Positions 13,696 to 37,400 of a DNA stretch of 64,000 nucleotides are shown piece by piece. Within the stretch, counting starts at the first letter, position 1. The number at the start of each line of letters is the position of its first letter. The notes under the pieces are model-generated. The model saw only the letters and a program-made list of their open reading frames with translations, did no database searches and had not been told where the DNA came from. Origin of the DNA: Paraspadella gotoi (Eukaryota; Animalia; Chaetognatha); the NCBI GenBank assembly GCA_051294375.1, contig JBJCIZ010000028.1, forward strand, positions 1,901,053-1,965,052, given 5' to 3'. The position numbers were made by a program, and so were the translations under genes.

Positions 13696-16600
13696 GCCGC
13701 GGCGCCGTTTTCCGATGCCGACTCGAGATGAACGCCGCTTGTGAAGAAGATCCGATCCTCAACGCCGAACCTCTTTCCTCTTCCTCCTCATCTTCCACCT
13801 CTTCCTCCTCCTCTTTCTCCGACGCTCAACTCCTCGGTTTCTCCCTCTTTTCTTCTTCCTCTTCCTCCTCCTCCTCCTCCTTCTTTGGCACCTGCGCGCC
13901 GCATTTCGCCTGGCGGACGAGAATCTGGAACCAGACGACAGGTGGCGGAAAATTAACGGAACGGGGGGGAGGGAAGGGGGGGCAGGTGTAAAAATGTAGT
14001 TGGGAGGTGCATCAGGAAAAAAAAAATTATAATTTGATTATTGGCTGGTGAATATGGCAATTGTAGAAGACGAAAATAATAATAATAATAATAATAATAA
14101 TAATTAATCAAATCAATCAATCAATTAATCAATCTAATCAACAAATCAATCTATCAATCAAATCAATCAATCCGATTCACTAATCAAATCAATCTAATCA
14201 ATTAAACCAGTTAAGTGATCTAATTTATAAATTTTCAATCACTCAATTAGTCAAATAATTCAATTATTCAATCAATCAATCATTCCAACCAATCATTCAA
14301 ACCAATCAAGCAATCAAATCATACCAGTTAACTAATCTAATTAATAAATTATTTGATCAATCAAATCAAATCAATCCAAACCAATCAATCAAAAAAAAAA
14401 CCTCCCCATCTCCAGCTCGATTCACTCCCGACTTTCGCCAAGAACCAATCGGCCGCTGCCTCCTCGCCACCCCTACGTCAGCCTCGCCCATCGAACTTAC
14501 CCCGACCAAAGAAGAGGAAGAAGCGACGCAGGACGGCGCCTATCCTTACCCTCGAGTGTTCGATCGCGGCGCCGCCGTGACGGCGTCCTCACGCTTCTCG
14601 CAGGAAAGGTACACGGGTTAGGACAACACCCGGTGCCTAGTGGTCATGAGCTGATGGGCTTACTCAGTGAGCCACCGGGTCACGACTGAAGGTGTCATGC
14701 TTATAGGCGGGTGAACTTTTGCAATGCCGACAACAGACTCGCCTAAACGCTCCCGGCGATCCATGTAAAGCCTGTTTCCCGACGGTGACAGGGCTGCAGA
14801 CAGTCNNNNNNNNNNNNNNNNNNNNNNNNNNNNNNNNNNNNNNNNNNNNNNNNNNNNNNNNNNNNNNNNNNNNNNNNNNNNNNNNNNNNNNNNNNNNNNN
14901 NNNNNNNNNNNNNNNNNNNNNNNNNNNNNNNNNNNNNNNNNNNNNNNNNNNNNNNNNNNNNNNNNNNNNNNNNNNNNNNNNNNNNNNNNNNNNNNNNNNN
15001 NNNNNNNNNNNNNNNNNNNNNNNNNNNNNNNNNNNNNNNNNNNNNNNNNNNNNNNNNNNNNNNNNNNNNNNNNNNNNNNNNNNNNNNNNNNNNNNNNNNN
15101 NNNNNNNNNNNNNNNNNNNNNNNNNNNNNNNNNNNNNNNNNNNNNNNNNNNNNNNNNNNNNNNNNNNNNNNNNNNNNNNNNNNNNNNNNNNNNNNNNNNN
15201 NNNNNNNNNNNNNNNNNNNNNNNNNNNNNNNNNNNNNNNNNNNNNNNNNNNNNNNNNNNNNNNNNNNNNNNNNNNNNNNNNNNNNNNNNNNNNNNNNNNN
15301 NNNNNNNNNNNNNNNNNNNNNNNNNNNNNNNNNNNNNNNNNNNNNNNNNNNNNNNNNNNNNNNNNNNNNNNNNNNNNNNNNNNNNNNNNNNNNNNNNNNN
15401 NNNNNNAATCAATCCGATTCACTAATCAAATCAATCTAATCAATTAAACCAGTTAAGTGATCTAATTTATAAATTTTCAATCACTCAATTAGTCAAATAA
15501 TTCAATTATTCAATCAATCAATCATTCCAACCAATCATTCAAACCAATCAAGCAATCAAATCATACCAGTTAACTAATCTAATTAATAAATTATTTGATC
15601 AATCAAATCAAATCAATCCAAACCAATCAATCAAAAAAAAAAACCTCCCCATCTCCAGCTCGATTCACTCCCGACTTTCGCCAAGAACCAATCGGCCGCT
15701 GCCTCCTCGCCACCCCTACTTCAGCCTCACCCATCGAACTTACCCCGACCAAAGAAGAGGAGGAAGCGACGCAGGACGGCGCCTACCCTTACCCTCGAGT
15801 GTTCGATCGCGGCGCCGCCGTGACGGGACTGTCTGCAGCCCTGTCACCGTCGGGAAACAGGCTTTACATGGGATCGCCGGGAGCGTTTAGGCGAGTCTGT
15901 TGTCGGGCATTGCAAAAGTTCACCCCGCCTATAAGCATGACACCTTCAGTCGTGACCCGGTGGCTCACTGAGTAAGCCCATCAGCTCATGACCACTAGGC
16001 ACCGGGTTCGATCCTAACCCGTGTACCTTTCCTGCGAGAAGCGTGAGGACGGCCATATATCCAACCTTGGGGGCGTAAAACCCTCAAACCTGGTTCCAAG
16101 CCCAGGACCCGTTCCATGGCTGCGAGAGGGGTTAAAAAAGTTCGGATAGCACTCTTCAGCCACTTAGCGCCTTATAAAATTATTGGATTGAATTATCAAT
16201 CAATTATATTATTAAATTATTAATCAATTGATTGATCGATCAATTGATTGACATAGTCAATCGATTGTAAAACGTTATTGCCTAGGGGGAGACTAACTCA
16301 GTAAAGTGGTTAGAATTTGAATTAAGACTGATCAAACGAAATTTAGACATTAAAAAAAATTGAATAGACAATTTTTTATTACTCCATACTCATATATTAA
16401 TTTTTTAATATTTATTTATAAATAGGAAAGGCTAAAAATTTTTTGGATTTTTTATTTTAAGTCAGATCAGGTAGCTTGCAAAAAGTTGTCTACACAAAGT
16501 ATAATTCTTTTTTCGATATTTTGATCATAAGTATGTGAAAAATATGAAAAACTATTTATAATCATCATCATCATCATTTTTCGATAATTTTATTACTTTT

Positions 16601-19600
16601 TTTCTATTTTGACCAAAGAAAACATAAATATTTTCGAAAGTTGTAGTTAAATTTTTTATTTAACTTTTTATGCTCTATCAGAATCCATCAAAAAAAGTTA
16701 AGATTGATTAAAAAAATTGTTTATCATTATATAGTAATATTGTAATTTAATAGCAACAATAAAAGCATTAAAATCGAACTTTTTTAAAAATTCTTTTTTT
16801 ACCTAAAAGTAGACTTCAAAACTAAAGTTTTGAACCCCGCCCTATTGAATTTAATTTCATAGTAGATTTCTATTATTGCAATTACATTTACATTTACCCC
16901 TGAAATTGCACAATTTTTGAATTATTGATCTATTTTTTCTAACATCGCTCTTCCACACACAACCCTTCCCCCCCTTCCACACAAAAAAAAGATTCCGCGG
17001 TCAACTCGACATTCAGTCGATGACCGATTCCGGCTTCCGTTCCGTCATCCCACGCGGCCTTCGACGACTCGAGAAGCGATTCCGGACGAGCATCTTCAGC
17101 AACGCCTACGGATACTTGGGATATTCGGTGGCTGCCGCCGCGGCTGCGACGGTTCCTGCGGCGTCGGGAGCGGCGGCGGCTGGGACGGCTCCTGCGGCGT
17201 CGGGAGCTGCTGTCGCGGCGGCGGTGAAGTCAGGAGAGGAAATAGTCGTTTTGGGTGAGGACTGATGACGGTTGTTTCTTTTGTTTCTTGGTTTCTAAGT
17301 TTGTATAATAATTTGTATAATAATTCATGGAAATTTGAAACCTGAAATCAATACATTACAAGTTGTTTTAGGATTAATTAAAATGACAAATCAAGTTTTA
17401 TCATCAAAACTATAAATTATCAATACGAAGATAAAACGAACATGATCCCGTCATTGACATGCAATAAATAAACAAAAGCACCAAAAAATAAATAAAACCA
17501 AATACTAAAAAATAAAGAAAACGTAAATGAAATTTAGCAATTTTATATTTTTTCAAGCAGATGCAAAAGTGGTATTCCAGCCATTGCAACTCGAATCATT
17601 AGTTTCCTTTTCTAAACTTTCTACATCAAATGCGTTTTTGTAAAACTCGAGTTTCAAAATGACATCAGCATCCTTCAAAGTTTGTCCCTTGTGCCACACT
17701 TCAAGATCCTTATAATCAATGGCTCTAATTCCAAAATCCTTCAAACGCTCAATGAACGCTTTCTTCAAATCGCCAACGTTGCTTTTGACGCTAAACTCCC
17801 AAAGATATTTCCATCCAGCGTCCTTGGTAGGAAGCGAAGCCGACTGAATCAAAGCCTCCATTTTTGCAATTTCCACTGTGCTGCCTTCCAAAACCGGAAT
17901 GCCCTGGTTCACCTGCTTGTCATTTTTTCCCTCTGATTTTGGTTTCGATCGCTTATCCAAAAGATTTTCTCCCCTGAAATTCTTGGCCAAGATATTTTCT
18001 ATCGAAACCCCAGGCCAATAAGCTCGCAAGTCCTGCCAAATCTTCTTCACCACGTCACTACCGTTTATCTTAAGATTGGGCTCGTCTTGTTCAAAAGTCA
18101 GGGTATTTGGGGCCATGCTCAGGCGTAACGTTTCAGGGTGAAAGTAGAAAAGTTTGATGTATACAGAGCTGGAACTGGATAGTGTTCTTATGGTGCCTTG
18201 CCTCAGACCTGTTTCCTGAGCTTGGGTCTCTAGTTTAACGTACTTGCAAGTATAAGTCTTGGTCATATGTACCTGGATTGACTGTTTTTTCATAAATAAG
18301 TAAAGAGTGAAGATAAAAATAAGGAAAAAGTTGCATGAAAAAATCGTAAAACGTTTCTTCCGTCGGGGAAGTGGAATCAAAAATCTTCAGCATGAGATTC
18401 GGCTGTTCTTTGGCGTGAACGATAACGTTTCGAACGAATCTTATAAGGTCCGAGTATTTAGTAATTTTGTATCCTCTACCATGACAACCAAATTTGTCGA
18501 GCAACTCCTGACTGAAGTGGACATTCCAAGCTCCCGTTCCACCAATGACCAAGCTAGAATTCAGTTCCAACAGCTCAATGCCAATCTGTTTTTTCTGTTC
18601 TTTGGGAGACATTTGACTCCAAAGATTGAGGGTCTGACTCAGTTGTTGTATCTTGAATATGCGGTTGCTGAGAGTTGAAAAGGCTGGACACTCGAGTGCA
18701 TTAGATGCAGGTAATCCTTGACGAAGCGAAGAGACTAAAACATCAAACTCAATTGTCTGTGTTGTCCTCATTTCACTTATTAATATCGATACGTCATAAA
18801 GATCCTTCAACTCATAGCATTCGTCTCTGAAGCCAACTGATTCTGAATTTAAAAAGTTTCCTACCTTAAGGATCCAGCCGGAAGGTTTTTCGATTAAGTA
18901 GATAGAATCCAAGCATAACCCGAGATGATAAACGTGTGGCGACTGTAAATGTAAATAGTATACTGCATTGATAAGTTGCCAGCAAAGATCATCTTCATTG
19001 AGTGTGATTTGGTTCTTTTTAGACATAATCAATACTTCTCTGAGGCTGCAATGCGGAGTCTCAATAAATAAGAAGCCTGTTAGGAATCGTTTCAAATTAA
19101 TTTCCGACCCAAATCCGTGAAGTAAAATAATGTTTGGATGATTCAACTTTTGATGCAGCGTCGATTTTAACTCAAATTTTTTTCTTGCTTGAAAACTTTT
19201 TAAAAAGACTTTTTGGTAGGCACGATACTTTTTTTTAAGCCTGATGAGATTAATTGAATGCGCAAGTTTCATCAAAGCAAAGAGTAGGGTTAGCGCTAAG
19301 AAAGAATATGGAATGTACTCTTCTTCTATGAGACATTCTTCATAGATTGAATCTCTTGATATGTTTCCATAGCAATCATATCCAAATACATTCATGTATT
19401 TTTTTGCATACTCCATCAAATTAACATTACTGCAATTAAAACAATCCCATCTATTATTGTCAGCCTTAAAAGTAGTGTGTTTCATATTCTTTATTTTTTC
19501 TGGCATTTCCTCCAACTCATTGTGACTTATGTCGAGGGTATCAATCAGTGAACCATTAAAGATTGTAGCGGATGAAGGTAATCTTTTCAACCGATTGTGA

Positions 19601-22600
19601 GATATATTTATGATCCCATACCGCTCAAATCCAATGAGTTTAATATTTCCTACTGATTCCAAGAAGTTGTAGCTAAGATCAATTTTTAAAAATTGACTTC
19701 CTGCATCGTTTTTAGATGAGATGGAAAAAGATTGAATGTAGCAATTTTTAGCTGAAATTGATTGAAACATATCAGAAATCCTCTGATTTAAAAGCAACGA
19801 AAATGTTTTAATCCTGTTCCCACTGAGGTTAATAATACTTATCTTGCTGTCAATAAACGCATTTGAATTTATAGTTAGAATTTCATTGTTTGAAAGGTCT
19901 AGCAATTTTGCTGTTAAGTCTGGAAACTGCCTGAAGCATATTTTTCTTAATCCGTTTCCACTCAGGTCTATGAGAGCGTCATTGCCTACATTTTTTAAAC
20001 GTAAACTGCCAATGGTCGTGCCCCAATATTTATGGTTCCAACGAGCGATAAACTTATTTGTTTTTAGGTACAAATATCCACCAAACAATCTTTCGCAACA
20101 TCCCAACATTCTGATTTGTCTCATTTCGCGATTTGTGGAGAAGAGAGTCTGAAGTTTAAATGTTGTTTCATCAATATAAATTTTAGAGCGGTTGAAACAC
20201 TGAGGAATGTCACTTGCTTTTGTTGAATGGTCAGAACAGCATCCAAAGCTGATATCAGTTATCTGAGCATGTTTAAATGAATAACCATGGATTCGTTTTA
20301 GTGGATTATACAGAATAGATATTTTTTCGAGCCCCGTGAGCTTCTTCATCAAGCCAATCGGTAATGTTGGAAAAGAATTGTTGTCTAAAATTAAAATGTT
20401 GAGAGATCTCATTAGCGGCAATTTCAAATTGGAAAGACTGTTTCCTTCAAGATTTAAATATTGCAGATCGGAAACGTTTAGAAAGGCAGACTCATTGATT
20501 TGGCTTAATTCATTGAAACTCAGGTTCAACATTTTGATTTTTGTTAAATGAGAAAAGGAATCAATTTTTACCAAATGGTTTAAACTTAGATCCAAATAAG
20601 TCAATTTTCCCAACCCTATGAAAGTCTCTCCATTGAGTTCAGTCAGTTGATTTTGTCTTAAACTTAACGATCTCAAGGATCGAGAATTTCTGAATGCTCC
20701 CGATTCCACGAAGGTGAGACCGAGATTCTCCATTCTGATCGTCTCGAGACAAAAGAGGTGAGACACTAGCCGTTCAGATATTCCTTTTAAATGACCATTA
20801 CTGAGTCTGACCCCCTGTAAGTTTGGCATGTTGAAAAAGAATGTTTCATTGATGGAAGCAATGCCTTTCACAAGTATCCTCTTAAGCTTTTCGTGCGAAC
20901 CGGTGAGATGGGAAAGATTAACAGGTTCATGACAAACTAGTTGAAGGTTTTTTAAGTTGGCAAAAAAAGGAAACTCTTCGAGTCTGATTTCAAAACTTTC
21001 GTCAAGTTCCAGATTCAAACTTTGAATGTGTACTAAGTCAGGGAGAAAGTCCAATGTCTTAAGGCGGTTTCCCCAAAGAAACAAACTTGACAGTTTCTTG
21101 ATTCCTTCAAAAGCATCGGCTGGCAACCAAGAGAGCAAGTTTTGACGCAGGTCAAGAACGTTCAAAGTGGTCAAATTTTGAAAATGCGTCGTTATTTGAG
21201 ATATTTTATTGATATTCAAATCTACGTATCTGAGTTGCGACTTTTTAAATGCGTTTGTACCGATTGAAGATATGGAATTATTAAAAATTATAAGCTTTTG
21301 CAATTTTGGGAAGTCGGTGAGAAAATCGGAGCTCATTCTTTGAATTCCAACTCCGTAAAAACTCACGTCCGATCTGACGGTAAAGTTGTGAGGCTGGAAA
21401 CAGTTTTTGAGTTTGGGGCATTTATCATAGTCAGTGGTGATATTGGCCATGAGGTCGTTGTCGAGCGCCACACAACCGGCCAACGGTTTCTGTCCTTCCG
21501 TTCCGACCCAGCGACAATAAAAAGTGTCGTATCTTGAGCGGCGATGAATGTTTCGCTGATGCAAACAAGTCATTTGACACTTTTCCGTGGCCAATGCCAA
21601 GCAAATGTCGAGCAATAGGCACGCAAAGTACCATTTGTGATACCGTTTTATTATCATTTTTTTTGGCCGTTTATTTTTTTTGCAGTCAAAAAGTATCGAA
21701 AAAGTGAAAAGGAAAAAAAAAAAAAAAAAAAACATGCATGCAAAGGTGGAGTGATTTTTCTAATTTCTAATAGAATCAAAATCAAAACATAAATCTTGTA
21801 TATTAATGAAAAGTTTTTCGTAAAAAAGATTTTTAAATCTTTGCAGTTTTAATCATAGAGTTGTATTTAAATAAGGCATACTGTAATAAAATCGAAAGTT
21901 TGACCTTTTAATATTTTTTCTGGGATGTTCGAATTCCTTGTAAAAGTTAAAATAAAAAACTGTTATTCTTTATTGAAATCATTAAGTTAGTTAAATATAG
22001 AAAAAACTAAAATTTTATGGTGAAAATGAATTTTAATCATAATTTGGAAGTTTTATAATTTTTGACCCGCCTAATGAACGATTTTTTTTCTCCTGAAAAC
22101 AACTTTTTATGACGAATCTGTCAAAGAAATTTAAAGAATTAATCTTTAAATTTTGACTATTTTATGTTTAGAAATTTATAATAAAACAGCTGAAAGTTTA
22201 AGCTGATTTAAATTTGTTTAGATAAAAGCATATTGTTTATGATTTCTATTTTGATGTTTATTATACACTGCTCTCTTATGCGGGCGACAAAGGAAAAAAA
22301 AATCACTAAAAAGTCGAGGCTCTGTCGAAAAAAAAAAAACAACAAAAACAATCAAGAGAGATTACGCCGCGATAATAAAATGAGAGAAATAACTTTTTAG
22401 TCATCAAAATGTTTGATACTTTTCAAATTTCGGTTAGAGATTTCGTCAATGAAAATTCGATGTGGAAGGAACCAAGCAAGTTTTATTTTCACGAAGAATT
22501 TTTGATCTGTGATGCATTTTTACATTAGTTTATAGTTACAGTAGATAGTTTATGGTGACAATAGATTATTTCAGAAAAAAAAAACAAGAAAGCTCGTGCA

Positions 22601-25600
22601 ATGGATAACTGTTAGAAATTAAAAGTTTTGAAGATATTTAAACAATTTTTTTCATATATATATATATACACACATGAAGAATAATACTTTGTCTACCTTT
22701 AAATATTAGTAGCATTAAACGGGAGCAATGGAAGTTAGCATCTACACTTTCACCTTTCCCCCAGGACTCTTGATCTGATCATCATCAAAAATTACAGATC
22801 GGAATTGTTAAGCTTTGGCCCGTCATGCGATATCTTGTTCCATTCAAAATATCTCTATCTACAGATTTATATAGAAATGTGGCGGCTACAGTAGTGACTA
22901 ATTGTTCGCTATAGCAACTTCGGCTGCTCCTGGCTATGGGTTTAGTTGTGATGGGTGATTATGATGATAACAAAGTCGTCGCTTTGTTGTTTTTGCATAT
23001 TTTGTCAAATATTGTGACCACATCGCTGTTGTAAATTTAAATAGGTCATTAAAGATGTCAGGTCAATAGATAAAAATTTGGTAATTTTAGAATGCGCCTA
23101 TTGGACTAATATAGTAAAAAAATATCATTGCGAGCAATTAAATAATGATGGCTCGTAAAGATTTATTTAAATTTTAACTGTCGTTACACATTTTGTTGTT
23201 TCGACATTAAATGGGTGTTGTAAAAATCTAGTTTCAAAATAACATCAAAATCGCTCAATATTTTTTCGTCCAGAGACTGAAAGATTCTCTGCGCGACAGA
23301 ATGAACGCCAAAATCCTTCAAACGTTGTATCAACGTTTCTTTCAAATCTTTTACATTGTTTTTTCCGTTGAACGCCCAAAGGAATTTCCACTTAGCATCT
23401 TTCGTGGGCAGAGAGGAAGACTGAATCAAGGCCTCCATCTTGGCAATTTCCACGGTGCTGCCTTCCAAAACGGAGATACCCCGAGTGGAAATATTTTCCT
23501 CTTTGCCCTCCCGTTGTATTTTTCCTCTCCTATCCAAAATGTTTTCTCCCTTGTAGTTTTTGGCGAGGATACTCTCAGCTGGAACCCGTGGCCAATGAGC
23601 TTTCAAATCTGGTCCGATCATTTTTGCGACGTCGCAACCATCTCATTTTCGTCTTAGGTTCCCCGGAGTGGAAACTCCAAGTCTCATTGCTGAACATGAG
23701 CGACATGGTACTAGGGTTAAAGTAAAAAAGCTTGATGTGGACAAGGCTTTTCTCAGCCAGTTTCTTTATTGTGCCAAGCTCTAGACCCCTCTGAGTGACT
23801 TGAGTTTCCAGCTTGGCATATTCTTGCAAAAATGTGTCTTTTGTTGAATGCGTCTGGATTTTCTATTTTCTCATAAACGCATAAGAATGGAGTTAAAAAT
23901 GAGGAAAAAGCCGCATAAAATAATCGATAGAATTCTTTCTTCCGTGGGAGATGACGAACAAAACTTTGAGCATAAGATTAGGATACTCTTGAGCGTGTGA
24001 AATGATGTTTCTTATAAACCTGATCAAGTCTGCATACTTATTGATTTTATATCCCTTGCCGCGACATCCAAACTTGTCTAGCAACTCCCAATCAAAGTGA
24101 GTGTTCCAAGCTCCATCTTCACCAATCACTAGAGGAGAATTTTGCTCTATCAGTTCAAACCCGAACATTTTTTTCTGTGCCTTTGGAGCCATTTGTCCCC
24201 AGTGTTTGAGTGTCTCGCTAAGCTGTTGTATCTTAAAGATACGTTTACAGAGGGGCAAAAAAGCAGGGCTCTCTAGAGCTTTGACTGCTGACAGCCCTCG
24301 TTGAAGAGAGGTGACCAAAACTTCAAATTCTACCGACAATGTGGTATTTATTTTGCTTATGAGTCTTGAAACGTCAATAAGATCCTTTAATTCATTAACT
24401 TCATCCCTTAATGCGTTTGATTTCGAGCTTAAAAAGTTTCCTATTTTCAACGACCATCCTGATGGTTTTTCTATCATGTAAATAGAATCCAAACTTAATC
24501 CAAGGTGATAAATAGGTGGAGACTGTGTGTGCAGGTAGTTGACTGCATTTAGAAGTTGAAAGCAAAGTTTTTCTTTGTCGAGCGTAATTTCGTTTTTATC
24601 AGACATGATCAATCCTTTTCGCAGGCTGCATTGTGGGCTTTCGATGAAAAAATAACCTGTCATAACTTTTTTTAAATTTATCTCAGTTCCAAATCTGTGG
24701 AGGAGCAGTATGTTGTCGTGTTTTAAACTTTGATGCAGTTTTGCTTTGGCACCAAAAAGTTTTATTGTCTCAAAATCCTTTAAAGCGACTGTTTGATAAG
24801 AAGGATAAATTCTTTTAAGTCTTATGATATGAACTGAATGCACGAGCTTCATGGAGAGAAAAACTAAAAAAACACCTAAAAAGGAATAAGGCATATATTC
24901 ATTTAAAATCAAACACTCTTTATTGATTTTTTCCATTGAAATGTTTCTATAGCATTGAAGGCCAAAAACATTCATGAATTCGTTGGCATATACCATCAAA
25001 GCAACATCATCACATTTAGAACAGTCCCATTTATTGTTGCTGGTCTTAAAGATAGTATGTTTCATAGATTTAATTTTCTTAGGTATGGTTTTTAGTAAGT
25101 TGTATCTGATATCAAGCAAATCTATAGTGGAGACACTGAAGATAGATGCTGCCGAAGTCATAGTACTGATATTGTTATGAGTTAGATTGATTGTCCCAAA
25201 CCCCCTGAAACCAGCGAGTTTGACATTTTTCATTGATTTTATTTTGTTATAGCTTAGTGCAATATTCAAAAATTGTGTCACAGCCTTATGCTTTGCAAAA
25301 ATAGAGAAGTACTCTATGGTGGAGTTAATAGCTTCAACTGTCTGAAACATACTTGCTACTCGTTGATTAAAGACCAGTGATAAAGTTTGAATTTTGTTTC
25401 CACTTAGCCTTATTGTAGTTATTTTACTATCTATAAAAGCATTTGAGTTTATAGTATTAATTTCATTGTTTGAAAGATCTAGCAGAGCAGCTATTAAATT
25501 AGGAAATTGTCTAAAATAAATTTTTTTCAAACCATTATAACTGAGATCAAATACAGCATCATTTCCGACATTTATCAAATGCAAATTTCCCAGGGAGGGT

Positions 25601-28600
25601 CGCCAATACTTCTGGTTCCAACGTGAAATGAATATGTTTGTATTTATGAACAAATGATTCCCGTACAAATTTTCACAACATCCCAATAATCTGACTCTAC
25701 TTAGCTTTCGATTTGAAGTGAATAGTGTATAAAGCTCAAACGTAGTTTGATCAATGGATATTTTTGATACGTTATGGCATGCTGGAACGCCTCCTTTTGT
25801 ATCAGAGCAGCACCCGAAACTAATGTCCACAATTTGAGAATGTTTGAACGAACTGCTGTAGATTTTTTTCAATGGATTGTAAAGAACTGATATTTTTTTG
25901 AGACCAATCAAATTTCGCATCAAAGAATCATAAAGGGTTGTGAGGGAATTGTTGTCCAATATCAACTCGTTGAGCGAACTCATGAGGGGCAAGTGAATGT
26001 CTGAAATTCTGTTTCCCTCTAGATTCAAGTACTGTAGTTCAGTATTGTTCACGAAGGCAGGTTTTCTTATTTTAGTAAAGAGATTAAAACTCAGATTTAA
26101 CATTTTAACTCTGTGGAGATCAGAAAGGAAAGTAAGCTTTGTCAATTGATTTGAACTTAAATCTACATAACTTAAACCTTTTACCCCCAAAAATGTTTCA
26201 TTGCTCAATTGAGTCAAGCGATTTCGTCTTAGCCAAAGACAGTGCAATGATCTAGCTCTTTGAAACGCTTTAGGTTCGATGCGTTCAATCCTAAATTTTT
26301 CTAATCGAAGGTACATCAAATGCACTAAGTTGGAAAACAATGGTTGAGATATTTCACGAACTTGACCATCGCTGAGGCGAATTACCTTAACATTTGGCAT
26401 GTTTTCGAAAAAGCTTTCATTAAAAGACCGTATGCCACTGATGCTGACTTTGGTAGAGCGATTTATGTAAACCCGGGAGCCACGTCAAATTTGCCAGAGC
26501 GTGAATGAAAGTCTAATTTGCAACAACTTTGTGAAAATTGGAAACTCATCAATTCGCGTTCGCACACTTTCATCGATCTCTAAATGCAATTTTTCAATGT
26601 TGAGGACATCGGAAGAAAGTCCAAGGTTTGAGTCGATTCCCATGAGCGAAAGAGTCTTCAATCTATGAATTCCTCTGAAAGCGTCCGCCGGCAACCATGA
26701 GATAGAGTTTTGGTTCAATTGGAGCACGGTCAATCTGCTCAAGTTCTGGAACTGTGTGGTGATTTCTGATATTTTGTTTCGATCAAGATCGATAAATCTG
26801 AGTTGAGAGTGTTTAAAGGCAGTTGGACCGAGGTAAGATATTGAGTTGTTGAAAAAGTCAACTTTCTGCAAAGCTGGGAACTCGATGAGAAAATCCGATT
26901 CGATCCTTTGGAGTCCGATGCCAAGAAAGTTTACCTAAAATAATAAATATATTTTTTGTTGCCATTTAACACGTAGATAGTTATGAAGAGAATAATTCAT
27001 CAAATATTTTTTAGTAAAAGATTACCTAAAATCACCTTATATTTAAAATTAGAGCCCAATAAATTTATACAATTTCAAATACATTTTAACTAGATTCATA
27101 TACACCGAAAAAAACTTTTTATCACTTTTGTTTTATATTATAAGAATATTTATTGTTTAGGTTATACAAATTAATAAAAATTTGTTTTTATTATTGTATT
27201 ATTTATTTATTATTTACAACAAAAAAATGAACAAAAAGAGGGTATGAAAATGTTTTTGAAATTTAAGAAGCTGAAAAATTTTTATCAACATGTTATCAGT
27301 TATGAATTATGAATTATTACGAATATGAGTTATAAGAAAATAAAATCGTCATTAAAAACTTTAAAAAAATGTTTTTAACCTTCTAATACAAAAAAAAAAA
27401 ATTCTTTCATATTATTAATTTACATTGACTTTCAAAAAAAATTATCAATGTCGGACATCCTAAATTATCAATTGTCAAGCGTTCAACTCCAATTACCACA
27501 GGTCCTCGGCGCGAAATCGAGGTTTGAAAACAGTTTTTTAGATTGAAACATTTTGGGTCGTTGGTGGACACGTTGGTCATGTCTTTAGCGTCGAGCGTCA
27601 CGCATCCGGGCACCGGCTTTTGGTCTTCAGTTTCCATCCAGTGACAGAAGAAAATGTTGTACCATCGGTCGCTGCCTCGTTGATGAGAACAAGTCAAGCG
27701 ACATCTTGCGGAGACGTGTCGCGAATAATTTGAGAGAGAGAGACTCAGTAAGAGAGGGAGCCACAAGCGGACTATTTTTAGTAACATTGTTTGACCGGTT
27801 TTCTTTTTCAATAGTTCATTGAATTGAATTTTTTTTTCTTTTCTTTAATTAGTAACAGGTATCTGTAAGTGGTAAAGATGGACCCAATGAAAAGTCTATA
27901 ATTATAATTTTTGTTTAACAAATTTAAAATTATTTATAATTAAAGCCTGTCGCAAATCAGGGGCAAGATACGGGCTTATTCTTGTAAATGAAATGGGATA
28001 ATATTCATATCAGTTGTACCAATTTCATTCATCAAAGAGTAATAAATTTTTTATTATTTTTATTATTAGTTTAATTATCTCTACATTATAGATGGTATGC
28101 GCGATACACAATTAATGATAGTAATTTGGCAAAATTATCCGCAACTTGCTTCACTACATCTTTTTGTTTTTCTATTCAGTTGTTGTTATTTGTTTTTTTG
28201 TTTCGTCGCGCGTTTTTTCTGTCGTTGAATACAAACAATGAAAGCAGAAGAAAATCGTAATGCGGGCAAAACCCGGAATCATATCAAAAACAACGTTTTA
28301 TTGAGATCGATACATATTGAGCTAATTTGGGAACAACTTTGGGGGCCGTTTATTATTAGCGGAACGGTCATGTGTTGATTATAACTGAAAAACAATTTTA
28401 GAACTTCGGGTGATACTCAGCTTTCAGTCGATGGCCCCCCCACTACAAGAAAAAAGGTCAACCCCCGCGCCAAGGGATCCTCGGGTGCAGAGGCATCAGA
28501 GGACCCGCTGGGTCAAAGTGGTCGTCCGTGCGTCGGCGGATCGAATCGTTCAATTCATCCTCGATCTCAATGTCGCTTCTTTCTGGCGCCGGATCGTCGC

Positions 28601-30196
28601 GTTGGCCGTACGTTAATGGAGACGGGTTGAAGGTTGATAGGGCTTATCCGATCAAATGCGTCATACAATCAATGGTCAATGCGTGAAACATATATTCTTC
28701 AATCAATCAATTGACTATGATTAGTTCAACGATGGAATCCAATCAATAGGTTATTCAATCAATCAATAAATGAATCAAATGGACATGCGTACAAATAATT
28801 CGATAAATCACATCACATCAATCTAATGCAGTTTAACTCCCATCCTCTAGTCTTTTTCCTCCCTCTCTCTCCCCGTTCTCCCTCCTCACTCCCAATCTAC
28901 CGCCTCCATCCTACTCTCCTGGCCCTCTTCTCTCCGCTCTTCCCTACTCTCGTCCTCCCTCCTTCCTCCCTTCGCCCTGCTCTCACCCTCTCTCATCTCC
29001 CTCTGCCCCGCTCCCTCTCCGCTTTCCTCTTCCCCTCTCCCCTTCTCTTCCTCTTCCTATGCTGTCCCTCTCCCCGTCTCTCACCCTCGCTCCCTCTCCC
29101 CTCTTCTCTCCCTTCTCTCTTCACCCTCCCTCTCCCTCCTCCCTTCCGTCCCCCCTCTCTCCGTCCTCCCCCTCTTCCTCCTTCCGCACTCTCCTCTGCT
29201 CACCCTCTTCCTCGCTCTCTCCCTCCTTCCCCTCTCTCCCGCTCAGCCGCTCCTCTCCCCTCCCTCTTCCTCTCTTCTTCGCTCACTCGGGTTCCCCTCC
29301 TCTCCCTCCTCCTCTCGCCGTCCCTTCGCCTCTCTCACTCTCTCACCCCTCTCCTCTCTTCCTTCCCCTTTCATCCCTTCGTCCTCCCTCTCTTTCTCTC
29401 TCCCCTCATCCCTCTCTCTCTGCCTTCTCCCTCTCCTGCTCCATTCTCCGTCTCGCCTCCACCTCGCTCCGCTCCTCATCCCAATCCTCCTCTCTCTCCT
29501 TCCTCTCCTTCCTCTCCCCTCCCTCTCGCTCACTCTCGTCTCCTTCCTCCCTCCCCCTCTCCCTCTCAGCCTGACCGACCTCCTCGTCTCCTCTCCTACC
29601 TCTCGTCTTCGTCGACGCAAATCACGTCGAGTCGTCGAAACCGGATCTGTCGCGATCTTTCTTCGGTTGGCGAAGGAGGAAGAGGAGGAAGAGGAGGAGG
29701 AGAACAACGAAGACGACGACAACAACAACGACGATAAATAGTGAGTTTCACTTGACCGTTTTATCGAATAAAAACGAATGGCTTCTCGATTTAAAGAAAT
29801 TCGAGGAGATTTCTCGGAAATCGGGGGGGAATTTCTAAGAAATGAGCTGATCTTCTGTGGAGTCACGATTCGATAAAGATAAAAGCGTTGAGCGTTGAAT
29901 TCTTCCATTCGGATGTTATATTTTTGTGAATCTTTTAAAACTTTAAATAATAAGCCGAGAATGAGTCGATGTTAATGAATATTAATACAAGAATTTTATT
30001 ATTTTCCAACTTCACGAACTATCGAGAGATAGATGTTAGGGATCTAAAGAAGAAAGGTACCATTTTACATTAACTTTTAATTCTTTTTATTAATGTACCT
30101 AAGTAGATAACCCATTCGCCTAAAGAGTTTAAATGATTAACTAACAATAAATAACAAAAAATGATGATAATAATAATAATAACAATAACAAAAATG

Positions 30197-30294
<98 letters not shown>

Positions 30295-30321
30295 AATGAT
30301 AATAATATTAATAATATTAAT

Positions 30322-30396
<75 letters not shown>

Positions 30397-31360
30397 AATT
30401 TCTCTCCCTCCAGCTCCACCTTCTTCCAACCCAAACCGGCCTCCACTCTTTTCGGCGAGAGCGCCGGCGCGCGATTCGGCGCCGCCATCGTCGCCGGCGT
30501 CGACCTCAACGACGACGGCGTCGCGGACTTGGTCGTCGGGGCGCCGGGAGAGGGCGCCGGTCGTGGAGGTTAGGGGGTGGAAGGGGGAGAGAATCTAATT
30601 GATAAGTTATTATTATTAATTAATTCATTCATTCTTTCAGCTATTCCGTCTAACGTTCATTTATTTATAAATTCGTTCATTCATTTCATTTCGATTTTTG
30701 AAAAAAAAAAATTAAATTGATTTCTCACTTTATTTATTTATTTTATTACACATTGTGGCATTCGTTATTTCAGTCATTAATTCATTCATTGATTGATTCA
30801 TTCGTTAACTCAGTCAATCGCTCATTCATTCGATTAATTTATTCGTTAATTCATTCTTTCATTCATTCGATCACTCATCGATTGATAGGCAGATGGATTA
30901 ATTGATCGATTGATTGAACAATTGATTAATAGATTGATTGATTGATTGATTAATTGATTCATTGATTTATATCATTCAATCTCTCATTGATTTATTAATT
31001 CATTTATTCATTCATTCATGTATTCGATCACTGATTGATTGATCGATTCATACATTCACTTCATTTAATCTCTAATTGATTGATTAATTGATTGATTGAT
31101 TAATTAATTAATTCATCAATTCAATTTTCACCCCCCTACTCCCAAACCTCCAAAAGTCTCCACCTCTCCCGGCGCCATCTACATTTTCCACGGTTCGCGA
31201 AACAAAAGGATAAAAAGATTCTCGCAAAAGATTTCGCCGGCGACCGAGTTGAAGGCGGCGCCGATAGGGGGCGTGGTCGGGTTCGGAGCGGCGTTGGCGG
31301 CGACGGAGGATGTGGACGGAAACGGATACCCGGATGTAACCGTGGGTGAGGGGGAAAAAA

Positions 31361-31401
<41 letters not shown>

Positions 31402-31449
31402 CAATAAGAGACAGAGAGATTACCGTCAAAACCATCTTCAAAACTCCCC

Positions 31450-31496
<47 letters not shown>

Positions 31497-34400
31497 CCTC
31501 CCCCCAGGATCTCTCCGAGGCGACGTAGTGACGCAACTTTGGACGCGTCCCGTGGCGTCGGTGACTGCGACGATTGGCGTCACGCCACGCGTCATCGACG
31601 TCGCGACTCGGACGACGTTGGGATCCGTGACGCCGTCGGCCAAAGTCACATTGTGTTTGAGGTTGACCTTTGTTTTGTTTTTTGTTTTGTTTTGTTTCTG
31701 TTGTTTTTTTTGTTTTTTTAGTTTTTGGTTTTAGTCTTTGGTTTTATTTATTTTTTTTTTTTTAGTTTTTTTTTTAGCTTTTGTTTTTTGTTCTTTTTAT
31801 TTTTTCCCCATCACTATCTACTCCATCAAGCTCTCACTACATCAATTCTCAAATCTCTTTCTCCAGCTTTTCCGGCCGCGGCGTGGCCTCAGTCGGTCTC
31901 TTCAACATCACGTTTCGTCTCGACGCAGAATCGACTTCACCGAAAAAGAGAATCTTTGGTTCCGATTATAGGACGGAGTTTTCCGTTGCTAGGAGACTGG
32001 AGAGAGAGAAGAGGGATTGTTTGGAGGAGCAGGTTGGTTGAGAGAGAGGGAGGGGGAGAGGGAGAGAGAGGGAGGGAGAGCGAGATGAAGGGAGAGAAAG
32101 AGAGGAGGAATGAGAGAGGGAGAGAGAGGAGAAGAGAAGAGAGAGAGAGGGAGAGAGATTAAGAGAGAGGAGAGAGCGAGAGAGAGAGAGGAGGGAGGCA
32201 GAAAGGGAGGGGGGAAGAGAGAGAGGGAGAGAGGGAGAGAGAGGGGTAAGCNNNNNNNNNNNNNNNNNNNNNNNNNGAAAAGAGTGAGATGATAGATTCG
32301 AGAGAGAGAGAGAGCGGAGAGCAGAAAGGAGGGAGCAGCAAAGGAGGGGAGAGAGAGAAGAGGGAGACGAGGGGAGACAGGAAGAAGAGAGAAAGAGAGA
32401 GAGACGAATGAGGGAGAGAAGAGAGAAAGAGATAGGCAGACGAGAGAGAGGAAAAGAGAGGAGGGAAAGAGAGAGAGGGAAGGAGAGGAGAGAGAGGAGA
32501 GGCGAGAGAAGAGAGGAAAGAGAGAGGAAGGAGAAGAGAGGAGAAAGAGAGGGAAAGAGAGAGGGAGAGATTGATTAAAAAAGGTAAACCTTAAAGCGGA
32601 TTAAAATAAATACACCCCTCTCCCTCTCTCACTCCATCTTTTCCTCCCTCCTTCTCTCTCACTCCCTCTCTCCCTCTCTCTCTCCCTCATTCCTTCCCTC
32701 CCTCCCTCCCTCCCTCCCTTCCTCCCTCTCTCCCCCCACTCTTTTCAAAAGCTCATCCTAATCGAGGAAAATCTTCAAGACAAACTCAGTCCGATCATCA
32801 TCGAAGCCTCTTGGTCGCTCATCGATCTCCAGGGCTCCTCTTCCTCCTCCTCCTCCCTCGGTCACCCCCCAGCCGTCCTCTCCGCCGCGGAGCCGCACGC
32901 AGCGGCCGTCGCCGCCCACGTGGCCAAGGATTAGATTAACAGAAAACTACACTAGCAAACAGAGGAGAGAACCCCAATAAATCTCCTGTGCTGTTATCTC
33001 ATACAATAAAGAAGATTGCTTTAAAGTATTATTAGGTTTATAATTAGGGAAAACAATATTACTTAGAAATATACATATAAACGGAACCTTGCTGGTGTCG
33101 CAAATCACAACCTACCCTGTAGAGATCAGGAAAGATATATACGGTATTCTTCTGGTAATGAATCCCGCATAAGCCAGAGATGGTGGTGTCGGCTCTAGAA
33201 GTGATATTAGGTTGTATCTTAGGCTTATATATCAATCCTTATACTCGTAGCCAAAACCGCTCCAACCTGACGAAAGCTACTCCATTACCTACCGCCTTGG
33301 CTCGTTCCGTTCCCGATTTCCGACGCGTCCAGACCTCAATTCGCAAATTTTAATCTTTTTCCCGAATTCTTCAAAGGACTTTCCACGTCCACATTCGATC
33401 AAATCGTTCGCTAGCGATTGTTCTTCTGTTTCCGTCATCCTTCTGTCTGCCTCCAGCCCGTTCGCTCCTCTGTCGGCGGAAAGCGGAGAAGCTTTCTCGC
33501 AGCCCAAACCCTTATAATAAAAGGAAAATTCTAAATAAAATTAACTACAGCCAACCCTCAACCTAGCTACATAGTATAAAATTAGAAAAACCTAACGGAA
33601 ACTGCTTAACCCTACCGTAGAAAAAGGATTTCTAATAAAAGTTCAACTACTCGAACAACCCTAACCTAGGCTCTCTTAGGGTATCAATATTAGAAAAACC
33701 GCTGAACCGGGAACTGCTTTCAACCTCTAACCCCTGGTAGTTCATATTAGTAATTAGTTTTGTAATAGGTACCGCGTAACCCTAAGACAGCCAACTGTAG
33801 TCGCTCAAGCAACACTACTCAGAACTGCGCCTAACTAGAGAAAATATTCTAATGAAATTAACCCTAGCACAACCCTTAACACCTAGGCCTCTCATAGTTA
33901 AAATATAGAAAACCCTACGAACTGCTTCAACGCCTAACCCTAAAAAGGAAATTCTAATCAGAGCATTAACTACACAGAACCCTAACCCATAGCCTATTTA
34001 GTATAAATATAAGAAAAACCTCAAAAACTGCTTCAACCGCTAACCCTGTAAGTTCAAATATTAGTATTTTTGTAAAACTCCGCGTAACGCACCTTTAACC
34101 TCTACACACGTAGTGCTCTTAGAGCCGCAGAGAAGTCTCTCTAGACCCGCCACATAGCTCAGGAGAAGTAACATCTGACTCACGTTGTTCGCTTCTCGGG
34201 TGGAGGTGGGACGGTCTCTACGTAGGGTCTGGGCCCGTGAGCTGTGGGCCTGCGCCGATAGGTGCGAGCTTGCGTCTCTCCTTACTGAGAAAACACACTC
34301 GGACTGGTATGGAGCTCGGTGACTCCGGATGGAAGCGCTATATTTTTAGATCGGGGAATACTCCGTGTTCTGAATAGCCACATCTTACAAGCAGTAATGG

Positions 34401-37400
34401 TGCGTTGGCACGCACTCCACTATAAGCACATCAATTGTTTTTACACTCCTTATTCTCAACTCGAGACTTTTTTTCGAAGCTCGCGTAGGTACTTTTTGTT
34501 GATTCGTTCAGTCCGCCCGCCTCATAATTGTCGGGGCACGGGAATGGGATGCATGCTGGTAACCTGTTTACTCTGAATCTCTATGAGGGTTGGTCGGCTC
34601 CCTACCCTAGTACCATGAACATGTAGGACGAGAATTGACAGTTGTTAATCATTATATATTATGCAAAAAAAATGATGTCCCGATTCCGTGGCGTTGGCAC
34701 CGTCTGTCTGTACTCCGGTGCATCATATTGGATATCGGATTCCTAATGTGAAGGGGGCCGGCGGCATGGCAGGCAGGCGGGGCCTCCCGTCTTGGTCCGT
34801 CCCGTTGGACCCCCGAAAGGCGCTGGCGACGACCGGTGGCCCTTGCAGCGATGCCTGGCCCGGCCCCCGGCCCCTTCGCCTCTGCCGATGTCCCTTCTAG
34901 GGACCCAGTAAGCGTGCCAAGCGCAACTTGGAGACCGTTAGACAAAAGCAGAACACCAACTTACTCGTGAGGCTGGATGGATCGACTCTTTTAAATGCAC
35001 TATGTCGTTAGTGTGTCGCCGATATCGCGCGTGACCTGTGTCGAGTGTCGAGCTGGATATCTTCAAGTCGGTCATGCGCATGGCGAACGCGGTCCCGCGG
35101 GCCACTCTGGCCCGAGTGGAAAAGCTGAGTTTAATGGAATAAAACAAAAAGTACTGATGTCATCGTATTCCTGAACTACCTCATTGCTCATTGGGAGAAG
35201 AAGTGGAGCCTTCGGCTACTATTGCAGTCACCATGGAAAGTACCAGTTTGTGATGTCGCGCGCGCCTTTAGCCTCGAAAAGTGGTGTGTGATCTGGAACA
35301 GGAAATCAGTTGTCGATGAATAGTTTGAGGTGGAATGAGGTTTAAAATAAAAAACAAAAAACCTGTGTTTACTAAATTGATTTATGCTGTCTTTTTCCTT
35401 TTATTTAACTGGTATCCGTTGCAGGATGTATTATATAAATCAAATAATTAATCAGTTCCCTAATTATATCCGCGCAATTAGTAAACCTGACAATTGACCA
35501 TGGCAATAATCTCAGATAGGTTAATTAGCTTCAACACCTCCAAATTCGGGAACCCGGTACAAGATGCACTTGGAGACGAACCGGGGCAGCCTTTGCCTCC
35601 GTACCTCATCTTAGCAAAAAGCTCCAATATAATCTCCGCTCCGCCAGTGCCTCGAGGTGTGCGCATTCGGAATTAAACGGCTCTTTTCCGGGTCAGTGTG
35701 GGTAGGAAGTGTCGCCGATACGGGGCCCAACGCTGTGTGAGTCTTACAAACTGGGGATGTCTACTCGTAGTGGAAGGACATCCGTGTGAGTGCGCATGAT
35801 ATGGGGCATAGTTTAATGGAAAAAACTAGGTAAGTCGAAATTAACTAAAAAAGTCTTTTACGATTTTAACTAATTAACATACGCATCATTAATCATAATT
35901 GGAAGCTTGGATCAGATCCTTGAAGTGATAATTTTGTGTGTGGGTAGGAAAAGTGGGGCGATGACTCGATAGCCTCCGACGTATAAAGTCTTCACAGTGG
36001 CAACGTACGCAGGGGAAACATGACGTTTAAAATGGAAAAAAAAAAAATATGAGTCACACATTTACTTCGAGAATCTTGTTTTTATTTATTTTCTAACCCA
36101 TGATAGATTGGAGATGAAACTTGTGAGCCGGGTAGGAAAGTGAGTGAAGAAGCTAGATATAACATGCTTTCGGGACGGAAATGCAAGTTGAAAACAATAT
36201 GGGCAATGTTGGGCCAAAAAATGTGCGAGAGTCTTAAAAAGATCTTAAAGAGCATCGAGGATCGTCGCTATAGCATAAAAAGAGAGAGAGAGAGAGAGAG
36301 AGACAAGAGAGGGAGTGAGAGAGAGAAGAGAGATGTAGAGAGAAGGAGAGAGAGAGAGTGTCAGGCGGGCAGAGAGAAGAGAGAGAAGGAGAACCATAAA
36401 AACTGAGAAAGAATCTTAATAACGACCTCAAGAGCGAGCTAGAGCCCACTTCATAGAAATTAATGGAACAAAAAAAACCGGGAAAATAAAGGAGCCTCCG
36501 CATCATCGATACTGACGGAATTGTTGATGTACTAGTAATTGATTGAAGGTAATACTATTGATTGTGTATCAGTAATTTATTGGAATCCGTAATAGGAATT
36601 GATTTATTGTATTCGATGATAAATCCAATTATTGAATGCGTTGATAGTCATTGCACGTGCTGTGATGAACACGTCCATTCAGTGATGCGATGATTGGTTC
36701 ATTCATGTGATGCGATGATGATGGTCATATACATTGATCGATGAATAGTCATATAAATACAAACAAATGCGCTGTTGGTTGAAGGAAGGTGAGAGAGCGA
36801 GAGAAGAGATAGCAGAGAGAGGAGAGGAGAGATGAGAGAGAGAGAGAGGAGAAAGTAGGAAGAGAGAGAGCAGAGAATAGAGAGAGAAGAAGAGAGGAGG
36901 AAAGAAAGAGAATAAACATCCACAGAAAGTCTCGGATTGAAAATATGGGATTTGTATTGAAGAAAAAGCGGTGGAATAAATGGCAATGAATAAAAAGTTT
37001 TTAGAAGGAAAAAAATAATCAGAGAATTATTTTCCAAAAACAAAACGATCAACGCAAAAAGTCGGACAGATAGGACACAGTAACACACACAGAGAGACAG
37101 AGAGAAACAAGAGAGAGAGAGAGAAAAAGAGAGAGAGAGAGAGACAGGGCGCCTGGCAGAGAAAAAAGAGAAGAAGAAAGAGCGATATATAATAATTAAA
37201 GAGAGATGAGAGAGAGTGGAAGCTCCTAACAGCCGCCTTTCTACTCGTTATAAGATCGAGCAGTACTTTATGGCGCCCGCAATACGTAGCTGTGAGCTAG
37301 TTTTCTCTACACCAAGGACCCTTTCCGGGTCTCGCGTGCGCCCTGTTCGCTGGGCAACTCGTTTTTTACATAGTGACCCACATTATATCTAAAAAATTTT

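Follow-up and report, generated by a model that had tools for sequence, protein, structure and literature searches.

In a window of 64,000 nucleotides (nt) from the chaetognath Paraspadella gotoi (GenBank assembly GCA_051294375.1, contig JBJCIZ010000028.1, positions 1,901,053 to 1,965,052, forward strand), a gene on the minus strand, referred to here as copy 1, encodes leucine-rich repeats (LRRs), a predicted transmembrane segment, a kinase remnant and a KEN ribonuclease domain in that order. Read through one frame break, this intronless gene gives a product of ~1368 amino acids (aa) with the layout LRR-transmembrane-pseudokinase-KEN-Ubl-Ubl, where Ubl stands for a ubiquitin-like unit. Coordinates below are those of the window; relatives among public proteins carry P numbers, X1 is a sequencing run, and open reading frame is abbreviated as ORF. 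The features of the locus are as follows.

17553 to 21657, minus strand: copy 1, whole gene, intronless (ORF scan, Pfam, frameshift-aware alignment)
21589 to 21657, minus strand: likely signal peptide, aa 1-23 (by eye; hydropathy 1.37; similar N-termini in copy 2 and P0005)
21388 to 21588, minus strand: cysteine-rich N-cap, aa 24-90, with six cysteines (aligns to copy 2 exon 1, E 7.7e-16, and to P0005)
19453 to 21387, minus strand: LRR ectodomain, aa 91-735 (Pfam LRR_8, E 2.8e-45)
19330 to 19452, minus strand: LRRCT-like cap, aa 736-776 (C739, C742, C762 and C775; equal pattern in P0001, P0002 and P0005)
19243 to 19317, minus strand: predicted single transmembrane segment, aa 781-805, with a basic patch after it (hydropathy 1.77; 1.93-2.51 in three relatives)
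18673 to 19224, minus strand: truncated pseudokinase, aa ~812-995 (HRD replaced by HLG and DFG by NFL; no Gly loop, activation segment or APE)
18283 to 18672, minus strand: KEN ribonuclease domain, aa ~996-1125 (Pfam PF06479, 42.4 bits; PDB matches to IRE1; Y1063, R1076, N1077 and H1081)
18235 to 18243, minus strand: frame break, with 2 nt missing at 18243, and the resulting early stop (alignment with P0020 and P0001; X1 record 2)
17862 to 18170, minus strand: predicted ubiquitin-like domain 1, with a low-confidence insert (AlphaFold 2 strand/helix order; Foldseek matches to ISG15, di-ubiquitin and USP7 tandem Ubls)
17601 to 17861, minus strand: ubiquitin-like domain 2, lacking a terminal di-glycine (VIA-align to the Get5 UBL)
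23167 to 27787, minus strand: copy 2, a tandem paralog of the same layout with one GT-AG intron at 27496-26935 (tblastn, 56 % identity; Pfam LRR_8 and Ribonuc_2-5A)

The main ORF of copy 1 extends from 21657 to 18235 and encodes 1140 aa counted from the ATG at 21657. A start at ATG 21735, beside a T run, was dropped because it opens with poly-Phe; 21657 provides a signal-peptide-like start that matches copy 2. An earlier note on this DNA, made from the sequence alone, had described one continuous ORF over 17553-21657. This did not hold, as the main frame stops at 18235 and a second frame, 17553-18293, follows it, with the break at 18243. The domain order of LRRs, transmembrane segment, kinase remnant and KEN lies within the main frame. 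The conserved Ubl tail, the frame break, the tandem paralog and the extent of the kinase truncation are points beyond the earlier note.

The cysteine cap and long LRR array claimed for the ectodomain are both present, with the six N-cap cysteines spanning C27-C86 and LRR_8 matching in 10 stretches (Pfam). A relaxed pattern counted 17 LRR-like motifs; N-x-S/T sites are many, and an internal cysteine cluster lies within the array at aa 473-521. The LRRCT-like cysteines, also as claimed, precede aa 781-805, the sole hydrophobic segment of note, and the predicted topology is type I, with the LRRs outside the cell or in the lumen and KEN in the cytosol. Two claims stood in part: the signal peptide looks plausible by eye, as do the similar starts of copy 2 and P0005, and is assigned on inspection and hydropathy, while the transmembrane segment exists as a hydrophobic stretch but is weaker than claimed (hydropathy at this position is 1.93, 2.09 and 2.51 in the three relatives). 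The label 'Toll-like' fits the cysteine-capped LRRs and the one predicted transmembrane segment but not the remainder. No TIR domain was found in the Pfam scan, the cytosolic part being accounted for by pseudokinase, KEN and Ubl, and the best PDB matches of the ectodomain are generic extracellular LRR proteins (IGFALS, LRRC15, LGR4 and LRRC32, then TLR3), with LRRTM2 also among the top matches. The IRE1 luminal family is absent among the nine Pfam matches, the ectodomain being LRR throughout, and ankyrin repeats gave no Pfam match in the copy 1 protein.

Identification of the KEN domain rests on sequence profiles. Pfam Ribonuc_2-5A matched aa 1014-1124 (E 9.4e-11, 42.4 bits against a cut-off of 23.3), and the signature read in the earlier note is present as Y-x6-DLIRFVRN-x3-H followed by FFMQLFP. 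Y1063, R1076, N1077 and H1081 are spaced 13/1/4, identical to the spacing of Ire1 Y1043, R1056, N1057 and H1061. According to the part of PMC3149027 that was available, these Ire1 residues are an acid-base pair and phosphate ligands, and Ire1 works as a dimer with a composite RNA-binding surface. The R-x4-H motif, the polar residue after R and the upstream Tyr, as defined in the available parts of PMC3710099 and PMC3149027, all occur in copy 1. The first PDB sequence match of the cytosolic 321 aa was yeast Ire1 (2rio, E 2e-5), and a profile of 14 family rows matched IRE1 in an unbroken run that starts at the alpha-C helix and takes in all of KEN (positions 21-327, E 8.7e-15). A KEN-centred profile matched IRE1 at E 9e-6 and RNase L at E 0.16; by these scores the copy 1 domain is nearer to IRE1 than to RNase L. 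R, N and H are invariant in all 14 aligned rows and the Tyr is kept in 11, with His in three; these counts come from the alignment, a regular-expression census having missed motifs that the alignment shows (P0016). Copy 1 probably encodes an active RNase, to judge from its residues. ESM Atlas searches with the cytosolic part returned kinase-like and Pan3 clusters at 0.88-0.93 and yielded no family assignment, and a homodimer prediction for the pseudokinase-KEN part, run without an alignment, scored 0.00 and carries no weight either way.

The kinase-like fold of the earlier note survives as a remnant only. It is recognized by the IRE1 profile match, which begins at alpha-C, while Pfam Pkinase fell below its cut-off (E 0.096, 12.5 bits); LRR and KEN (PF06479), the other two Pfam families that the note had proposed for checking, both matched. 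The remnant comprises ~185 residues, with HLG for HRD and NFL for DFG; Gly loop, APE and activation segment are missing, as is a large part of the C-lobe. Judged by the motifs of active Ser/Thr kinases (Gly loop, VAxK, HRD, DFG, APE), copy 1 does not qualify, and among the aligned rows HRD and DFG are kept in P0016 only. Kinase catalysis is thus lost at the level of sequence motifs. The kinase fold is continuous with KEN in the 14-row family profile, and the remnant may serve as a scaffold.

To find relatives, the cytosolic 341 aa of copy 1 were searched exhaustively with HMMER against 1.84 billion representatives, giving 35 matches, 16 of them at 1e-10 or better. Among 25 matches scanned, two were complete LRR and KEN proteins, P0001 (1393 aa) and P0005 (1457 aa), each a single ORF from another assembly with the same layout as copy 1; P0001 aligns to copy 1 over aa 56-1137 (E 8e-142 within a 44-protein set). 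P0002 begins at the last LRR and continues through transmembrane segment, kinase remnants, KEN and tail, and the remaining family matches are mostly fragments of short contigs. Aligned members share 22-35 % identity. The combination of LRRs, transmembrane segment, pseudokinase and KEN with an intact catalytic set, as claimed in the earlier note, therefore recurs in independent DNA (P0001, P0005), and the architecture of copy 1 is almost certainly real and conserved. A tree of KEN domains (25 rows; eight short rows excluded) separated 21 family rows from four rows that we labelled IRE1-like (100/99) and paired the two copies with P0001 (95/89). This tree shows no descent, because it contains no named IRE1 or RNase L and is midpoint rooted. 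Word-index protein searches with region 800-1140 and with two family alignments found no family member and one unrelated multi-kinase (P0045); such searches are insensitive here, since they missed P0001 and P0005 too. Scans of JGI metagenome contigs with the copy 1 protein and P0006 found nothing.

The putative sensor attached to the pseudokinase-KEN module differs among relatives. In P0041 (1599 aa, a cluster mate of P0009) the pseudokinase-KEN-Ubl module stands behind LRRs and a ROC domain, so that its sequence suggests a ROCO-like protein with an RNase output. The order in P0041 is a Ubl-like start, LRRs, ROC GTPase and two strong hydrophobic segments flanking a Thr-rich loop, then the module. 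P0002 and P0003 have two to four repeated kinase-remnant units ahead of a single KEN. P0016 (534 aa) has a family-like KEN and short tail after a kinase that keeps VAVK, HRD, DFG and APE, and is possibly a less-derived member of the family. In one sub-branch (P0005, P0006, P0012, P0028 and P0023) the catalytic Tyr position is occupied by His in four members and Gln in one. By eye, aa ~670-850 of P0005 form a cap-short LRR block-cap module before the transmembrane segment, an arrangement that we take to resemble multi-cysteine-cluster Toll ectodomains; TOL-type and Toll entries are among the PDB matches of P0005.

The second frame of copy 1 is homologous to the in-frame post-KEN part of P0020 (E 8e-19), P0001 (1.8e-8), P0002 and P0012, the four matches among 44 stored proteins, a small set to which the E values apply. 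Frameshift-aware alignments made separately with P0020 and P0001 each placed one break, at 18243, two bases short. Sequence comparison thus strongly suggests that the main frame and the 17553-18293 frame are one gene broken at 18243, and the tail is very probably part of the same chain as KEN. An AlphaFold model of the tail based on a 15-row alignment (pLDDT, the predicted local confidence, 80.8; 34.6 when folded from the single sequence) consists of a linker helix and two beta-grasp-like units. Foldseek placed ISG15, di-ubiquitin and the USP7 tandem Ubls at the top (E ~2e-6, with low template-modelling scores over the whole). In this model unit 2 has a predicted beta-grasp fold, as VIA-align matched it to the Get5 UBL (Z 11.1, root-mean-square deviation 2.1, 78 aligned); unit 1, known only from the whole-tail model, has an order of strands and helix that fits the same fold. 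All 20 of the 20 PDB sequence matches of a tail profile were Ubl-bearing proteins (best E 0.064). Comparison of the two units with hhalign gave a probability of 2 %, and all ESM Atlas matches of the tail were under 0.9 (a SUMO-like cluster at 0.80). A C-terminal di-glycine is absent from the copy 1 tail and from nine of nine relatives checked.

The frame break was compared with contigs of X1, a run from one study that is RNA by guess only; seven of its contigs are listed on the two genes, and many more exist. The run may have supplied the assembly itself or may represent a different haplotype; its sparse coverage of the intergenic stretch and of the copy 2 intron is given no weight here. X1 record 2 spans 17430-20214 (2785 bases) with 2787 letters, 14 differences and two gaps, a net gain of two as the break needs, and unites the late LRRs, transmembrane segment, KEN and tail in one contig. 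X1 record 4 has 438 letters and seven gaps over the 439 bases at 23562-24000 of copy 2, where an independent alignment needs seven gap letters for a net change of -1. The other five listed records are gap-free, in places where no indel is required. Because the gap counts match the needed indels and relatives carry KEN and tail in one frame, the break at 18243 is likely an assembly error. Programmed frameshifting at 18243 was also weighed; relatives and copy 2 require none there.

Copy 2 (about 23167-27787) is 56 % identical to copy 1 over 1045 aa, with Pfam matches to LRR_8 and Ribonuc_2-5A (39.3 bits against the cut-off of 23.3) and an intact KEN catalytic motif. Its 562-nt intron has no counterpart in copy 1, suggesting intron gain or loss since the duplication. 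In the assembly its frame is broken in at least 11 places and interrupted by one in-frame stop (23893); a further event reported by the frameshift aligner at 26298 was discarded as an alignment end inside an open frame. Identity between the copies is highest in KEN (70 %), with 57 % in the LRRs and 58 % in the tail. Across five regions (LRR, transmembrane segment, pseudokinase, KEN and tail) the proportion of nonsynonymous differences (pN) was 0.17-0.26 and that of synonymous differences (pS) 0.70-0.87. With pN well below pS in all five, every part of the gene, including the tail, has long been under purifying selection. X1 record 8 departs from the window on the 5' side of copy 2 (27858), where 32 of its letters are unmatched; an AG lies a few bases away, at 27863, and the letters may stem from an exon further upstream, from a spliced leader or from a different haplotype.

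Elsewhere in the window, three of eight scanned ORFs had Pfam matches, including integrin alpha Ig-like and tyrosine-phosphatase domains, which point to an animal host. Integrin alpha exons lie at ~30100-39300 on the plus strand amid microsatellite-rich introns (an FG-GAP-like piece by eye and an Integrin_A_Ig_2 match). At 44950-47800 on the minus strand, overlapping frames encode tandem tyrosine-phosphatase domains, and an EGF-like piece lies upstream of them; this is probably a gene for a receptor-type phosphatase, disturbed by frame errors of the kind that affect the KEN genes. Immediately beyond copy 1 on its 3' side, 16844-17341 is a G+C-rich Ala-repeat stretch that has short ORFs on both strands and is matched by an X1 contig with no differences. 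A near-identical duplication at 14165-16051 (99 % over 420 nt, plus an inverted 226 nt) flanks a 601-N gap and is probably an assembly duplication of a high-copy repeat.

Among known systems, IRE1/ERN1 (yeast Ire1p 2rio and 3fbv; mammalian IRE1alpha 4pl3 and 3p23) is closest, being a single-pass protein of sensor, transmembrane segment, kinase fold and KEN, the layout predicted for copy 1, with identical Y/R/N/H spacing and providing the best PDB matches for the cytosolic part of copy 1. The copy 1 family differs in having LRRs in place of the luminal domain, a truncated kinase remnant, a tandem Ubl tail and duplication. RNase L, a soluble protein, binds 2-5A through its ankyrin repeats. It resembles copy 1 in joining a repeat-protein sensor to KEN and, according to the available part of PMC3069474, in a kinase without phosphotransfer, but copy 1 has LRRs and a predicted transmembrane segment, and the match to RNase L (PDB 4o1o) is weak (E 0.16). 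Toll and Toll-like receptors (TLRs) share the cysteine-capped LRR ectodomain and the single transmembrane segment predicted for copy 1, and TLR3, TLR13 and Toll are among the PDB matches of copy 1 or P0005; copy 1 differs in lacking TIR and in having the effector enzyme on the same chain, and TLRs are not its best matches. The copy 1 protein would thus work like IRE1 but is distinct from it in its dead kinase and missing luminal domain, from RNase L in its lack of ankyrins and predicted membrane anchorage, and from TLRs in having no TIR. Plant LRR receptor-like kinases have the order LRR, transmembrane segment, kinase fold, but in copy 1 the kinase is dead and IRE1-related, KEN and Ubl follow, and the host is most likely an animal. 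The tail model resembles ISG15, di-ubiquitin and the chicken OASL Ubl in fold only, at 10-17 % identity, and the copy 1 tail differs in its lack of di-glycine; no function is implied.

The earlier note knew of no animal precedent for an LRR-transmembrane-kinase-KEN protein, and our search of the open literature found no description of one. The available part of PMC3710099 reports lineage-specific KEN expansions in Oikopleura dioica and monocots, predicted to be defensive RNases and consisting of solo KEN, and lists fusions of KEN to kinase, ankyrin, CCCH, UBI and BRCT. The KEN-UBI fusion is a likeness to copy 1, and the solo KEN a difference from its LRRs and transmembrane segment. No LRR or transmembrane fusion is listed in that part, and the full architecture lists of the paper may bear on novelty. 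In the available part of PMC7333395, Ribonuc_2-5A is one of the extra domains listed for receptor kinases, in 10 of 10 plants and with architectures not given; these are probably IRE1 itself. The LRR-transmembrane-pseudokinase-KEN-Ubl receptor-RNase architecture is apparently undescribed so far.

By analogy with IRE1, we propose that copy 1 encodes a membrane receptor in which ligand-driven pairing switches on a cytosolic RNase with an immune role, and we give this whole mechanism a probability of about 55 %. On binding a ligand through their LRRs, two chains of a type I membrane protein would come together. The kinase remnant, unable to phosphorylate, would act as spacer or dimer scaffold setting the geometry, and two KEN domains would form a composite site of the kind that the RNA site of IRE1 requires. 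Given its residues and their conservation, KEN would then cut cytosolic RNA. The ligand may be microbial or otherwise non-self, and the output local RNA decay or cell arrest; more speculatively, the non-conjugatable Ubl tail might recruit partners or set the off state. Section 9 of PMC3710099, in the available part, ties tandem duplication and domain shuffling to defence for KEN expansions, and a defence role is favoured here because duplication, divergence and sensor swapping (P0041) fit that pattern.

An endogenous ligand acting in development, cell contact or self/non-self recognition, with cleavage or splicing of a few specific RNAs, is an unlikely alternative. Developmental LRR proteins (LGR4, LRRC15, LRRTM2) are among the top ectodomain matches, and the LRRs are no less conserved between the copies than the tail, showing no runaway divergence; however, a family this diverse (22-35 % identity), tandem duplicated and shuffled onto LRR-ROC is more defence-like, in terms of the available part of PMC3710099. 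Marginally less likely still is a secretory-pathway stress sensor, an IRE1 offshoot in the endoplasmic reticulum or Golgi with LRRs for a luminal domain, degrading membrane-bound mRNA. Its topology would equal that of IRE1, to which KEN and kinase remnant are nearest, and the weak transmembrane segment could favour retention. Yet Pfam finds no IRE1 luminal domain, the capped, glycosylation-rich LRR ectodomain resembles those of surface receptors, and the duplicated, diverged family forms its own branch apart from the four IRE1-like rows.

The breaks in the assembly, one in copy 1 and at least 11 plus a stop in copy 2, could also mean young pseudogenes or tail-less alleles in this individual, at a decaying locus of a real family; this reading, or that of a KEN which binds RNA without cutting, is improbable. 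In the seven listed X1 records the gaps equal the letters needed to restore frame (two, seven, and none in five), nonsynonymous substitution (dN) is far below synonymous (dS), and the catalytic set is intact in both copies. That misassembly joined an LRR gene to a piece of IRE1, as the 12 N gaps and local indel errors of the window might suggest, is largely refuted and has a very low probability, as the fusion is repeated in two copies at 56 % identity, an X1 contig crosses the joint, and P0001 and P0005 come from other assemblies.

Several observations weigh against a ligand-gated receptor-RNase in copy 1. Both copies are interrupted in this assembly. The gaps of X1 record 2 could sit in the 3' untranslated region, no listed X1 contig covers the whole ORF (a 15-nt hole remains at 20215-20229), and in copy 2 five 5' breaks, three breaks near the end and the stop at 23893 lie outside the X1 records listed with letters. 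The transmembrane segment is marginal (1.77 in a 19-residue Kyte-Doolittle window) and contains K and H, and the ectodomain is not specifically TLR-like. Conservation of the catalytic motif is partly selected for, because the relatives were found with KEN as query. The kinase-based switch of IRE1 cannot carry over unchanged, since copy 1 has lost the strands of the N-lobe and a large part of the C-lobe.

IRE1 and RNase L, the known animal KEN RNases, listen to the lumen of the endoplasmic reticulum and to a second messenger in the cytosol, respectively, and known LRR receptors signal via TIR, kinases or G proteins. Tentatively, and at slightly less than even odds, copy 1 and its relatives may represent an animal family of RNase-gated receptors, in which a portable pseudokinase-KEN-Ubl-Ubl effector from an IRE1-like ancestor was placed on Toll-style LRR or ROCO-like sensors, giving one-protein innate immunity in which detection at the cell surface or endosome would set off RNA cleavage directly, without TIR, adaptor or second messenger. 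Because the kinase is reduced to a remnant, the family would provide a natural test of whether KEN activation depends on a nucleotide switch or on dimer geometry alone, and it would lend itself readily to use as a scaffold for RNA cleavage under ligand control. If the proposed mechanism is true, an LRR ectodomain coupled straight to an RNase would add to the output classes of animal LRR receptors and would be a eukaryotic counterpart of the bacterial defence proteins that join a sensor to HEPN.

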